64,000 nt of DNA. Origin: Eledone cirrhosa (taxonomy: Eukaryota). The stretch spans positions 301,196,001 through 301,260,000 of the forward strand of contig OZ024743.1 in NCBI GenBank assembly GCA_964016885.1, given 5' to 3'. The notes under the pieces were generated by a model that worked only from the letters and a program-made list of their open reading frames with translations, was not told where the DNA came from and did no database searches. Position 1 is the stretch's first letter. Every line of letters begins with the position of its first letter. A program made the translations under genes and the position numbers. Positions 2,756-62,290 of the stretch are shown in pieces.

Positions 2756-3990
2756 ATATATATATATATATATATATATATATATATATATATATATATA
2801 TATATATATATATATATATATATATATACATATATATATAGTAAACATTAATTCTCTAATTCGATTACTTTATTGTATCTAATTCTATCTAAATCTTCTC
2901 ACATTCATCGGGGCGTTCATGTAGACAGAATAACTTGATGTTCATCAGCAGCATTTTTAGTGTTGAACGTCACGTTGTTTTTCCTGTCTCATGCATTAAC
3001 TTTGCATTTCATCGTTACGGGGTCGATAAAATAAAGTCCCAGTAATGTACTGGGTAATTGCTGGCCTTGTGCCAAAATAGAAACAATTACTCATATCTTA
3101 TATATGGTGGCATTATTGTATGAACATCACCAAGCATCTAAAACGATCATCGAAATGCCATGAGTGGCAGATCCTTGAAAATAATACATCTCTTCCTTTG
3201 ATCATGTGGATGCCCGGGCATCCACATGACCAAAGCTATTTGCTATTGCAGAGGGGACAAATGTGCAACTGTATCGAAAACAACAATGACAATGTTGGTC
3301 AAACCGACGACCATCAATCTTCGCAAATAAAACATTATTTTTGGATCTTGGAACGCCCAATATAATTACCAAATACGCCTATAAAAGACAAAATAATTTA
3401 CAGATGATCTTCCTAGAATTAAATGGGATACCTAAAAGCTGGAAGAAGTCACATGCACTGGATTTGTTATAAAAAGACAGAATGGTTGCATAGCAGTATC
3501 CAGAAGAATCATTAATATATTATAGATTTCAACTCTGTCTGAAAACGCTGAAATGTGATGTTGATGCCGTCAAAGATTTTTTATGACTGGTTGAATGAAC
3601 TAATGAAAGCAGGACCTACAGATGACTTTCACATCGTCTTAGTTGACTGGGTTGCAAATGTAGTCTCGGTAGATATGAGCAATTCATATATAAATATAAA
3701 CCGAAAGCTCTTTGTTTTTCAGTTTACAGGGTAATTCCTTTACCCTGGCATATGTTCGAACTAAAAATTAGATAGTTTGTGCAATCTCTATTTCAAACTC
3801 TGTATGTATACATATATAAATGTATCACACACACCAGTGTGTACTGAGTTACATATCGCTCGAGATATTATATATATATATATATATATATAGTGGTGGA
3901 ACACTGGAAGGTAATATCCGTAGTGGTAGAGCACTCAGTCCAAGGGACGAGTTAGGTAGAAATGGTTACACAACAGTTAGTTCACACATA

Positions 3991-4030
3991 CCGAGAACAA
4001 TTGTTTCATCTTCGCGGATCTTCAGCTCGG
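3991..4030 (-). ncRNA. Type I hammerhead ribozyme (minimal)
   Basis: CCGAG-CTGAAGA-TCCGCGAAGAT-GAAAC-AATT-GTT-CTCGG; stem I CCGAG/CTCGG; palindromic stem III. Confidence 0.75.
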
Positions 4031-4424
4031 GATGTGTATGGTGATAGGAACAGGAAGGCCAGCCGTACGAACGCGCATGCGCAGAAACTCGGTCACTTCA
4101 AATAGGCAATACTAGACTGCGTGCGGGAGGTGTAAGGGAGATAACTGCGAAAGTCCTGAAAGATTTTATAGTTATTCGTTCGTCCATACATAAGCCACAC
4201 GTCGGATTTCCCCTTGCGTATGGCTTGGACTTAGTGATGGCTTTCCATTGATGGAGTAGCCTATATTTGAGTCCTTGAGGGACCATACGTGGCTCGCGAG
4301 TTTCGTGGATGAACGTCTGTCCGGGTATCTGAAGATAGACTAGTATTGACTGTGTGAAGTGACCGAGTTTCTGCGCATGCGCGTTCGTACGGTTGTCCTT
4401 CCTGTTTCTATAACCATACACATC

Positions 4425-4464
4425 CCGAGCTGAAGATCCGCGAAGGTGAAACAATTGTTCTCGG
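4425..4464 (+). ncRNA. Type I hammerhead ribozyme (minimal)
   Basis: CCGAG-CTGAAGA-T-CC-GCGAA-GG-T-GAAAC-AATT-GTT-CTCGG; GUU cleavage triplet. Confidence 0.8.
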
Positions 4465-6130
4465 TATGGTGAACTAACTGTTGTGTAACCACTTCTATAT
4501 ATATATATATATATATATATATATATATATATATATATATATATATATATATATATATATGTACGGAAATTATTTAATTTTTCATCTACGATGAGAATAT
4601 CTAATGTTATTCTGGGATTATGGTAGTAGAGGTATGGCAATAGAAATATCAAGATCTAAACTGTAGGCGGTTTCAGGATATTTTATGAAAGGTAATTAAT
4701 TACATTTCAAAATAAGTTAAGAGATGCTCGTAAATTAAATTATTCCTTAATCCATCGTCATGTTTGACTCGTCAGCGCAAAGTGTAAGTTAGAAATATGG
4801 ATGTTTATTAAACCATTTCAAAAGGTTTCCTAGATACGTCCAAAACGTAAAAATTTCAAACCCTGAAGAGTGAATGACAGACTGTAATGAATGTTTAAGA
4901 CATTAGATTGATTATCTATATATTCTTTCGTCCGTTGTCTTATTTTTCATACCGAAAATGTGTAATTCAAATTAAACGCTTGGACATTTGTTTTCTTTTA
5001 TTGCTTTCCTTTCTATGATTCTCCTCTATCTTTTAACGGGATTTTCAAAACACTCCTCCCCACATATATTCTCATTTAAATGAAGGAATTGCTATTTCTC
5101 TCCAGCATACGGTTGGTCATTAGCTAACAAATATCTATTTAATAAGCTTAACCATAATAACCTAACATCATGAATCCTAAATAATAATTGCAGTTTATAA
5201 AAACATAGCAAGTAACATTTTTGTTTCGCCCACTCATGAATTCACCGTTGAAGTTTGTTTCCTTTATATATTTTTACTAATTTTCAATTTCGTATTTCAG
5301 TGGATTCGGTCGCATTTGGAAGTAATTGGTATTCAAATTAACAATGGGAACTAATGGAAAGATTTTTAGCTACATTTTATCAGTATGGCACTGCTCTTTA
5401 TCACGGTTTCATATTTCTAGATGGAGCAAATAAATAATGGTTTGTGAGTTCTTGCTGGGATAGTGAATTGAGGTAGTTTAATGTGTGTTAGAGCTGTTGA
5501 ATTTTACATGCTAAGATTTCATGAGCTAGTCCCTAGTAAATGGAAATTAGCTAACCATGGTGATCAATCATGCATTTTTTTCAGGATACATTGATCGCAT
5601 CATTATTTGTTTCACAGTCTTTGTATATTTCTTTTCATGGATTCTGTCATGAAATTTGAGAGGTTCGTCGGCTTTTTTTAAAGCATTTCCAGATATTTAG
5701 AATGCTATTCCTTCTATGCATTTTGAGATAAAACTTGTGTTAACACAGATAATCCTCGAATAATTATGTTCTCATTTCCTATTTATATTTGAGATATTTA
5801 TTCGCGCTAAAATGCCTGGTATAAATAATTTAATAGGGTGAAACAATTTGGTTACTTTCACCTAGACCTCATGAAGATAAAGCCAGCTCGCAATGCAATG
5901 CCTAATATTGTTTGTAATAATTTGGATCAGCTCGGAATATAGTATATGAATACACTTAAAATGAGTTGAGGACTTAATTTTGTGAAAATAGCAATTCTTG
6001 GTTAAACTGCTTTTTACACTAGCCATATCAGCATACGAAAAACTACGTTTATGTATGTATGTATGTATGTATGTATGTATGTATGTATGTATGTATGTAT
6101 GTATGTATGTATGTATGTATGTATGTATGT

Positions 6131-59950: not shown

Positions 59951-61180
59951 GCGTGAACAGATACCGCTCTGCATATTTGACATGTATACATTCCGTTTTC
60001 TAGTATTTTATTTTATCTTATTCTATTTTATTTTATTTTATTGTATGTACGTACACGCATTTTTATATATATGTGCCCCCATGTTATATGTGATTAGTTC
60101 ACGGCTACCACGTAGCTATTGCATTTATGCATATTGTGCATGCACTTTCAGGTTTATATCGCTACATGAATGGGTTGGGTCCAAGCCTCAGGAATGTTGT
60201 CTCATATGATTTTTATGCACCATGTGCACAGTTGCGTGTGTGTGTGTGTGTGGATGTGTAGGTATTCATCAAGCATGGGCTCATTTTCAGATGTATAAAC
60301 ATGACCAGGTGCATGTATGTATGTATGTGTGTCGACGCACATTCACATGCATGCATGTCTGGGTGGATGTACTTGCATGAACATGTCTGTGTAAGTGTAT
60401 GCATGAACATGTCTGTATTTGTAGATCCTCCATTCTTTCATCTGTATATATGAGCAGTCTCTTAAATATATACGCCTTCCTGTGTACAGTGTGTATGTGT
60501 AGATATGTGTATATTTATGAAAAATGCTATTTCAAGCATTCCTTTAAATACGTTCTTTTTACAGAGTTTTTCTTTTTGAAATGTGTATTTTTTAATGTAT
60601 TCTGAGGATGTGTTTTTCGGAAACGTTCTGTTCAATATTTTTCCATTTTTGAAAAAATGATTTCTAAGTATTCGCAACACATGCAATATTTACTGGGATG
60701 TCGCACATAATACAGTTGCGGGTGTGTACGTGATCGTTGTGGGTGAGGGCGCCTACAGGTTGAGAAGGCGGTGACAGGCCGCCAGCGTTTCAATCATACA
60801 AGCCTTTACCTCCTACAGTAGTAATTCCGATCTAAGAAACAACTTTGATTGACATGTGGCGAATGAAAGGAACAAAATATAGGACGGCCATGAGTGGTCA
60901 AAGACCGGGGACGTGTACAATTCTCGACCACTCACAAAATGACAACAGGATTTAAGCTGCCAAGTGAAGGCCGCTGGTGTAACTGGACATTTGAAAACTG
61001 TGCATCGTAAAATGAAAACGTATCTGAGCACCTTGCGATTTCAGAGTCAGTTTCGATCATTACATCGATCGTTCCTCGAGTTGGTCGCCAGAGAAAGGAT
61101 TTTAATATGCCTAATAAATGTTATTCGTCGCAACACTGATTCTCCGTTACTTATGTGATATATATATATATATATATATA

Positions 61181-61320
61181 ATAGGAACGAGTAGGACCCC
61201 GACGGCTGAGTTCAAGCCGTCGGGGTCCTACTCGTTCCTATTACCCACTCTACTACCCTAAGTATTGAGTACTTTGGTGCGTTATGGTCCACCTGGTTCC
61301 TTACCACATTTCCTTCGTTA
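61181..61320 (+). mobile_element. Miniature hairpin-plus-tail derivative of the 36-39.7 kb PLE family
   Basis: Perfect hairpin ATAGGAACGAGTAGGACCCCGACGGCT/AGCCGTCGGGGTCCTACTCGTTCCTAT plus 80-nt tail. Confidence 0.9.
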
Positions 61321-62138
61321 TATATATATATATATATATATATATATATATATATATATATATATATATATATATATATATATATATATAATATATATGT
61401 GTGTGTGTATATATATATATTTATTTAATGTTGGAAAATGTGTGGAATCGTAGGTATACTTTTCAATAAAGCAAAATAATGCCTGTATTTGTAGTTCTGA
61501 AAAAATTAATTTAATTTTATATTATAATTTTACGAATTGATTTTGAAGAACTAGATCTACAAAACCAAACTGTAAAATTATAATATTGCAAAATTAAATT
61601 AAATTGCTAAGAACTGCAAGTGAATTTATTCTTTTCCTTTTTTAAATACACAGACACAGGCACACACACCCACACACGCACACACACACAATTATATGTA
61701 TATATATAAAGGTGAATTCTAATCTAACGCTAATACCCAAGTAATAAATTTAAATTGTAATTAATATTCAACATATGAATGTGGATATTCCCATTAATGA
61801 GCTGGGGTCAGAAAATGCAATAATTCTGATCATGGAAAAAAGTATTATTATATACTTCATAATATTTGTAAATTTTAGATTTCGTATTGATCATTTAAAA
61901 AAATATATATAATTGAAGCCACTCTCGCAATAGAGCTTTTGACATTTAAAAGAAGGACGGAATACTTAAGCCTCTCAAAAGTATGCATAAAACTAGAAAA
62001 TAATTGGGAGATGTTTAATCAGAAGTGCATGATATAATTATTATATTTGAAGTGGTTTAGCAGAAACAAAATTACATTTAATTGGAAGAGAATTATGAAT
62101 ATAAATAAATATATAAAGATATATATATATATATATAT

Positions 62139-62290
62139 ATAGGAAAATGTTCAAGACCCCGACGGCAGGGCTCAAGCCGTTTTGACGACTATTTCTGGTC
62201 TAGATTCCTATTACCCACTCAACTACCCAAAGTATTGAGTACTCTGGTGCGTTATGGTCCGCCTGATACCTCACCACATTTCCTTCGTTA
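62139..62290 (+). mobile_element. Miniature derivative of the same family
   Basis: ATAGGAA start, inverted hammerhead remnant, TTCCTATTACCCACTC...CCTTCGTTA tail, in (TA)n. Confidence 0.85.

Follow-up and report, generated by a model that had tools for sequence, protein, structure and literature searches.

Long and short ends of inverted Penelope-like element insertions in Eledone cirrhosa, and a candidate hairpin motif beside their predicted start sites

A 64,000-nucleotide stretch of the Eledone cirrhosa genome (assembly GCA_964016885.1, contig OZ024743.1, positions 301,196,001 to 301,260,000; hereafter the window) harbors a series of palindromic insertions in (TA)n microsatellites, in which two arms are joined head to head and one arm carries a tail that the other lacks. 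Judged from sequence, the palindromes are insertions of Penelope-like elements (PLEs), as a preliminary description of the window had proposed, and the families that we designate A to D appear to belong to the Hydra clade. Each family has a short end (S) and a long, tail-bearing end (L), and nearly every inverted insertion has one of each: in seven families, 181 insertions were long/short and one was long/long. The explanation that we consider probable is that both strands of the (TA)n target are nicked and prime the reverse transcriptase (RT), each at an internal site of its own on a single element RNA, yielding one short and one tail-bearing end.

Two ends in each inverted insertion

Scripted, de-duplicated counts of head-to-head pairs yielded 157 long/short insertions (80 in family A, 11 in C, 39 in D, 20 in G and 7 in F), no long/long or short/short insertion, and six with one odd end. 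End-pattern matching in family E gave 11 long/short insertions and five with one end unclassified. Family B, sorted by hand, had 13 long/short insertions among 14, one of them complex, the fourteenth being the long/long one. These counts carry a selection: the first family A query held the tail and the family D query held the short arm, so that one end was preset. A set of family A copies selected by their open reading frame (ORF) and a set of evenly spaced stretches are free of this bias. With tail-free queries, copies of families B and C all stopped at the short end, stopped at the long end or read through in tandem, bar small shifts, and end positions were bimodal in families B, C, D and E. 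The preliminary description had predicted two defined ends per family, one of each per inverted insertion, and had stated that randomly distributed arm endpoints would argue against it. The pairing is supported, and endpoints fell at fixed bases in B, C, D and E instead of at random; "two points" is slightly too strict, as family D has sub-sites at both ends.

The evenly spaced sample comprised 60 stretches of 10 kb (600 kb) along three contigs. A terminal repeat was present in 54 of 413 (TA)n-bounded segments, compared with 0 of 413 in a reversed-end control, and 42 of the 54 were asymmetric, which amounts to about one asymmetric insertion per 14 kb. Among the 12 symmetric segments, six are long/short pairs split by an internal (TA)n, two run on and four remain symmetric. 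A script found 31 pairs and 33 unpaired ends in this sample; about 13 further pairs were recognized by eye among the latter and about 15 single-armed copies were left, so that roughly three in four insertions are inverted. Thirty of the 39 ORF-selected family A copies were head-to-head by eye, the whole set being made of 24 long/short copies, three with an odd end, three with a broken arm, eight single-armed (six S, two L) and one lacking both ends. Inversion as the usual mode of insertion, also suggested earlier, is thus upheld.

That the inversions might be assembly artefacts, which the preliminary description named as a result that would refute it, was not borne out. Reads leaving the element at position 39660 into (TA)n numbered 3078, 2677 and 2727 in three raw Illumina runs of restriction site-associated DNA sequencing (RAD-seq) from one study, whose species label is that of the best-matching run and whose reads may derive from a species other than that of the window. 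Strand-switch joints were also present in the raw reads.

Comparison of the two arms at diagnostic sites indicates that both arms of one insertion share one source. Discordance in family A was 75/1578 (4.8%) within an insertion and 4022/19510 (20.6%) between random pairs; the corresponding figures in family B were 1/52 and 121/1167 (10.4%). In 13 of 32 family A insertions, the closest arm was the insertion's own partner.

Several individual loci deserve mention. The long/long insertion of family B (loci L163-L164, C1:348.130-348.141 Mb) carries the sole discordant diagnostic site of its family and is flanked by microsatellites interrupted in mirror orientation; it may be compound or recombined. 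At L161-L162 (C2:286.596-286.608 Mb), the plus arm of another family B insertion reaches the long end, jumps to its own internal (TA)n and goes on to the short end, which may reflect re-priming from, or insertion into, the microsatellite of its own 3' untranslated region (UTR). The four elements that stay symmetric (L270:1913-2132, L283:7927-8145, L288:4567-4943 and L316:8621-9515) are possible short/short exceptions or miniature inverted-repeat transposable elements (MITEs).

An internal tail and a motif beside the predicted start sites

The tail had been regarded as the RNA's 3' end, and 3' rapid amplification of cDNA ends (RACE) had been proposed as a check. This view is not supported. In tandem copies of families A, B, C and D, the long end passes without (TA)n straight into the 5' UTR and the ORF, and in family E it passes into the next unit; 48-156 nt of 5' UTR separate the long end from the ATG. 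The tail is therefore internal to the RNA and 3' RACE would be the wrong test. An internal tail agrees with the internal initiation shown for PAc, a Poseidon element of Anolis carolinensis (Frangieh 2024, PMC11167929). Ten of 12 predicted start sites examined by eye read UA or UAU in the RNA where the target TA begins.

Families A, B, C, D and G and two unnamed families have a motif of the form RCTC..GAGY-RCT that begins 4-9 nt downstream of S (A-like variants are counted with A in this tally, and the families with the motif behind the short end are counted as six). The motif was present in 19 of 42 asymmetric tails, while 0.02 would be expected from shuffles. Its loops span 11 to about 70 nt, and its R and Y co-vary among families, by eye, as A-U or G-C. 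In families A and B, a second copy lies 5-6 nt downstream of L, with post hoc p values from shuffling of 0.003 and 0.0007, respectively.

We also inspected by eye six Hydra-clade consensi from File S7 of Craig 2021 (PMC8557442), which come from coral, sea cucumber and copepod among others and whose ends are those of the consensus. The motif is clear in four of the six (Hydra-2_Amil, Hydra-2_Ajap, Hydra-1_Crog and Hydra-1_Ajap) and partial in Hydra-1_Obim and Hydra-1_Amil. It occurs twice, 61 nt apart, in Hydra-1_Ajap, and it reads GCCC/GGGC in Hydra-1_Crog, a compensatory change from U-A to C-G. A metagenome scan returned no loci, so the cross-species evidence consists of these six published consensi. 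Among papers outside subscription journals, we found none that describes the repeated motif or counts end pairing.

The asymmetry is also seen in families whose endonuclease is of another type, and there the motif is missing. Two long/short PLE insertions of this kind, with 60- and 44-nt tails, lie at L316:4947-7608 and L317:7206-8860; their families have a CxxC/histidine-bearing endonuclease and lack the motif, and the asymmetry consequently spans clades.

A probable mechanism and its alternatives

The mechanism that we envisage would begin with a putative protein dimer that binds two copies of the motif, one unit at each, so that the spacing of the copies would set the length of the tail. 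Where synthesis starts, the 3' TA of each primer would pair with a UA of the RNA, and both cDNAs would be extended toward the RNA 5' end, often up to the cap some 55-65 nt upstream of S, which would explain the many fold-backs of 130-210 nt. The cDNA 3' ends would then be joined head to head. A more specific and more general version is an attractive speculation, evenly poised in our judgment between right and wrong: in Hydra-clade PLEs of corals, mollusks, echinoderms and arthropods, a tandem pair of RNA hairpins would load both halves of an RT-endonuclease dimer onto a single RNA; the target would be cut with a stagger, and each half would prime one of the two strands at a point lying a few bases upstream of the hairpin to which that half is bound. 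Double priming would thus be obligate and the tail would be the spacer.

Features of junctions and arm ends can be compared with this scheme. One family B insertion in non-(TA)n DNA is flanked by a 15-bp duplication, as expected of a staggered cut; duplications of 11-17 nt within imperfect microsatellites are too noisy for counting. Most fold-backs of families A and D have short arms of about 55-65 nt. Thirty-four family D arms reach the sequence AGATTCC, 10 of them with genomic CC upstream; of the other 24, 20 carry a G. ORF-bearing and long copies of the family have CC before AGATTCC, and loci L186 and L194 have the extra G on both arms. An RT can copy a cap, and the extra G looks like a copied cap, with run-off at a capped 5' end. 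An apparent pile-up of long arms ending just beyond S is partly an alignment artefact. At window positions 39560-39600, a cluster of family A truncations coincides with a sequence that resembles an initiator (TTAGTC/TCAGTC) and has, about 30 nt upstream of it, an AT-rich box.

A number of observations weigh against our interpretation. Pairing has its exceptions: family B has its one long/long insertion, and four symmetric elements of the unbiased sample are unexplained. The short end of family D is split between two sub-sites (8 and 24 copies), of which one is about 17 nt from the motif. Arm similarity could also arise from gene conversion, subfamily succession or a single dominant source at a time. 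Regarding the motif, C and D were the families where a second copy after L was a true prediction, and it fails strictly in both: C has the heptamer and an ambiguous stem, while D has only the heptamer, in one of two copies, with no stem. Twenty-three of the 42 asymmetric tails are without the strict motif (four of these are near-misses), and families E and F achieve strict pairing in its absence, so that pairing in other families does not depend on it. Exact microhomology at junctions is short, 1-4 nt in 7 of 14 family B joints, and BLAST overlaps of 6-9 nt in that family reduce to 0-4 nt by exact matching; in family A, divergence of the copies makes exact microhomology unreliable. The extra-G test is weak in family A (5/6), a part of the extra Gs may come from the partner arm, and the query that retrieved most of the family D loci itself contained a junction. 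Lastly, PAc shows in vitro neither a strand preference of the start site nor homology to the cut DNA (PMC11167929).

Could two RNAs be involved instead of one? If both came from the same source locus, one per protomer, and the protomers were fixed to different start sites, the first cDNA need not be displaced, strict L/S pairing and arm similarity would fit provided that few loci are active at a time, and a cap-like G would be possible on both arms. We regard this as unlikely: an extra rule is required to keep both RNAs from using the same site, and discordance within family B insertions is 1/52, compared with 10% for random pairs. Fold-back or self-priming has been put forward in earlier papers (Arkhipova 2013, PMC3846280; Craig 2021, PMC8557442). 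A single priming event would be followed by self-primed copying of the folded cDNA, and trimming of one end by the endonuclease would leave the tail. Identical arms and a tail on one side only would be accounted for, but in 15 of 23 insertions the arm with the S end is the longer of the two (in the other 8 it is the arm with the L end). Such an arm cannot have been copied from the tail-bearing one, and it offers no template for the tail. In addition, copies with one arm may terminate at S or at L, and an extra G is possible on both arms. We regard this explanation as very unlikely.

The role of the motif could differ even if dual priming is right: it might act as DNA, signaling to the endonuclease or serving a promoter, or might stabilize the RNA, and not be an RT-positioning hairpin. 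The joint change of paired positions (A-U, G-C, and U-A to C-G in Hydra-1_Crog) across loops of 11 to about 70 nt makes this quite improbable, as do the fixed offset of 4-9 nt from the ends and the fact that the target is (TA)n and not the element. In its favor, the endonuclease of Drosophila Penelope is reported to need the tail for DNA recognition (cited in PMC11167929), GAGYRCTC is near-palindromic, and a strict second copy is missing in C and D. We give almost no credence to assembly artefacts, MITEs or symmetric palindromes eroded on one side. Although microsatellite palindromes are hard to assemble and four symmetric elements are unassigned, the same end bases recur in dozens of loci, most older copies show arm divergence of as much as about 6%, and RT and endonuclease frames are present; for family A, the short end and strand switches in raw reads refute such an origin. 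Priming of both strands on one RNA is the reading that we favor.

Families, window elements and significance

Tandem copies allowed the full units of family A (3581 nt) and family B (4284 nt) to be reconstructed. The family B ORF has, by eye, a C-terminal GIY-YIG endonuclease with CxxC and CxH motifs and no CCHH; its top homologue carries PF01541, and its structure model (pLDDT 92.7) has TERT as its top three fold matches, telomerase RT first. The RT motifs are RWK and DKT in B and RWR and DKT in A and C. The CxCX5C linker reads CSCRKPDEC in B and is degenerate in the A and C copies examined. Family C, whose ORF was taken from loci L323/L324, is of the same kind as A and B, and family D has an N-terminal frame only, degraded. 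A hammerhead descriptor matched B, D and E; a candidate was recognized by eye in C, and A has a variant core without folding support. Rfam scans gave no hammerhead, only hairpin look-alikes below the gathering score and one marginal tRNA-like match at 28381, and nothing significant came from a Pfam scan or a PDB sequence search. No ORF of their own was found in families E, F, G and H; G is tied to the Hydra clade by the motif alone. A MITE or another TA-targeting DNA transposon would have symmetric terminal inverted repeats of fixed length, which does not agree with the one-sided overhang and the variable arm length.

Most of these traits are shared with the Hydra clade of PLEs with a C-terminal endonuclease (EN+ PLEs; PMC8557442), which includes Hydra-1_Obim, Hydra-1_Ajap and Penelope-13_HM: RW(K/R), DKT, the CxCX5C linker, lack of CCHH and the (TA)n target, with a candidate hammerhead. 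Likeness to the Hydra-1_Obim and Hydra-1_Ajap proteins was judged by eye. Families here are larger (3.6-4.3 kb), and the A and B units exceed the "generally under 3 kb" of the clade because of long 3' UTRs. Two further features of EN+ PLEs are found: partial tandems forming pseudo-long terminal repeats (pLTRs), with the L end joining the unit start in A, B, C, D and E, and an inverted, 5'-truncated copy with a tail at one end. Tails are not the usual 30-40 nt of EN+ PLEs; they span 60-95 nt in nine elements and 22-49 nt in some other families. This is a difference in length, not in layout.

All nine asymmetric insertions previously listed in the window were confirmed by self-alignment and end mapping, with tails of 60-93 nt: each is flush at one end and has an overhang at the other, of 65, 75, 80, 80, 68, 60, 61, 93 and 79 nt in order from 3892 to 61181. 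The ends adjoin (TA)n, except for the left flank of the element at 36092, made of (CT)n and a few TA. Four family A insertions (36092, 41613, 61181 and about 62140) do share the start ATAGGAA and the end CGTT(A), as described.

The family C element (3892-4497, minus strand) consists of a long minus arm with a 65-nt tail at 3892-3956 and an endonuclease remnant, and a short plus arm at 4337-4497; the tail holds the motif ACTC..GAGT-GCT (3930-3952, minus), 4 nt past the short end. Family B is represented by a young element (12941-17814, minus) with a long minus arm at 12941-15548, a short plus arm at 15541-17814 and the GIY-YIG region in both. Its tail (12941-13015) holds GCTC..GAGC-ACT (12983-13006, minus), and a type I hammerhead-like motif, detected with our own descriptor and without an Rfam match, lies at approximately 13040-13115 (minus), with a predicted cut near 13055. 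The largest family A element (36092-39737, plus) has a short minus arm at 36092-36937 and a long arm at 36962-39737 with a broken RT/endonuclease frame; the tail (39661-39737) holds ACTC..GAGT-ACT (39666-39692, plus), 5 nt past the short end.

Most of the remaining long/short elements lie on the plus strand. Fold-backs are found at 41613-41808 (A-like, 80-nt tail), at 61181-61320 (a minimal family A copy, 79-nt tail) and at 52786-52991 (family D, 68-nt tail), the last having a hammerhead-like motif with a predicted cut near 52901 and arms that join near the inferred RNA 5' end. Family E (53044-53830) is a non-coding, retrozyme-like unit of about 425 nt with a minimal hammerhead; its left arm is a partial tandem and its 60-nt tail is without the motif. 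Family F (53880-54126) has a 61-nt tail without the motif, and family G (54448-54851) a 93-nt tail, the motif being present in the family consensus. In an A-like insertion at 62140-62290, the long arm barely exceeds the tail. An asymmetric element of family H absent from the earlier list (12365-12795, minus) has a 40-nt tail without the motif.

Other observations concern related sequences. A single-armed, short-ended family H copy lies at 54212-54416, and older, rearranged fragments related to family B, with an internal inversion, at 28435-29476 and 29865-31331. The family A 3' UTR contains, at 38930-39020, 47 nt of an unrelated repeat that is very abundant; the piece is seen at 22691-22738 as well. 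Outside the window, L245:1-5661 has at least 13 tandem, retrozyme-like family E units (about 425 nt each, with hammerhead), and G000:C4:80499000-80502000 is a satellite of 30-nt period made from the family C tail end, with over 70 such cases among the matches listed.

In L1 twin priming, the two strands of the target likewise both serve as primers on a single RNA, and the resulting cDNAs are joined head to head. Each L1 arm, however, is copied from a different part of the RNA, with a random second site, whereas the arms described here overlap and have fixed sites at both ends. Closer parallels are found within PLEs. In PAc, two internal RT starts also bracket the tail, both strands are nicked and extended on an uncleaved RNA template, and a dimer is predicted (PMC11167929); the two-start idea has thus already been shown in vitro. 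The PAc sites, however, lie inside the ORF with a tail of 30-40 nt, while those described here lie 50-160 nt upstream of the ATG, with tails of 60-95 nt, mostly at a UA that matches the primer. Furthermore, the site is not coupled to the strand in PAc in vitro, and here the two ends almost always differ. Penelope elements of Adineta vaga show inverted pLTRs, a tail on one of the two and 8-10-bp duplications; the available text describes a few copies singly, without counts, and reads them as self-priming (Arkhipova 2013, PMC3846280). Non-LTR (long terminal repeat) retrozymes (bioRxiv 10.64898/2026.07.22.740005) resemble family E in their non-coding tandem unit and type I hammerhead; family E shows PLE long/short ends directly, which supports mobilization by PLEs.

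The inverted copy, the one-sided tail, the (TA)n target and the two internal RT starts are hence known already (Arkhipova 2013, Craig 2021, Frangieh 2024). What is added here is the near-obligate long/short pairing, the shared template, the cap-like G in family D and the repeated hairpin motif. Craig 2021 (PMC8557442) noted an inverted 5'-truncated copy of Penelope-13_HM and considered the tandem or inverted insertion of PLEs and the one-sided tail an open problem; in its accessible part, tail length, end pairing and the repeated motif are not given for the clade, although the motif is present in its consensus file. Frangieh 2024 (PMC11167929) located an RNA binding signal without defining it in the part available. 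Near-obligate pairing, together with a short, mutable, cross-phylum motif near the start sites, lends itself to direct experiment with the existing in vitro assay. On a practical note, long/short insertions can be mistaken for MITEs or microRNA hairpins. If the proposal is true, genome writing could also profit from it, since the enzyme would be a compact RT-endonuclease able to write onto both strands under the control of programmable RNA hairpins.

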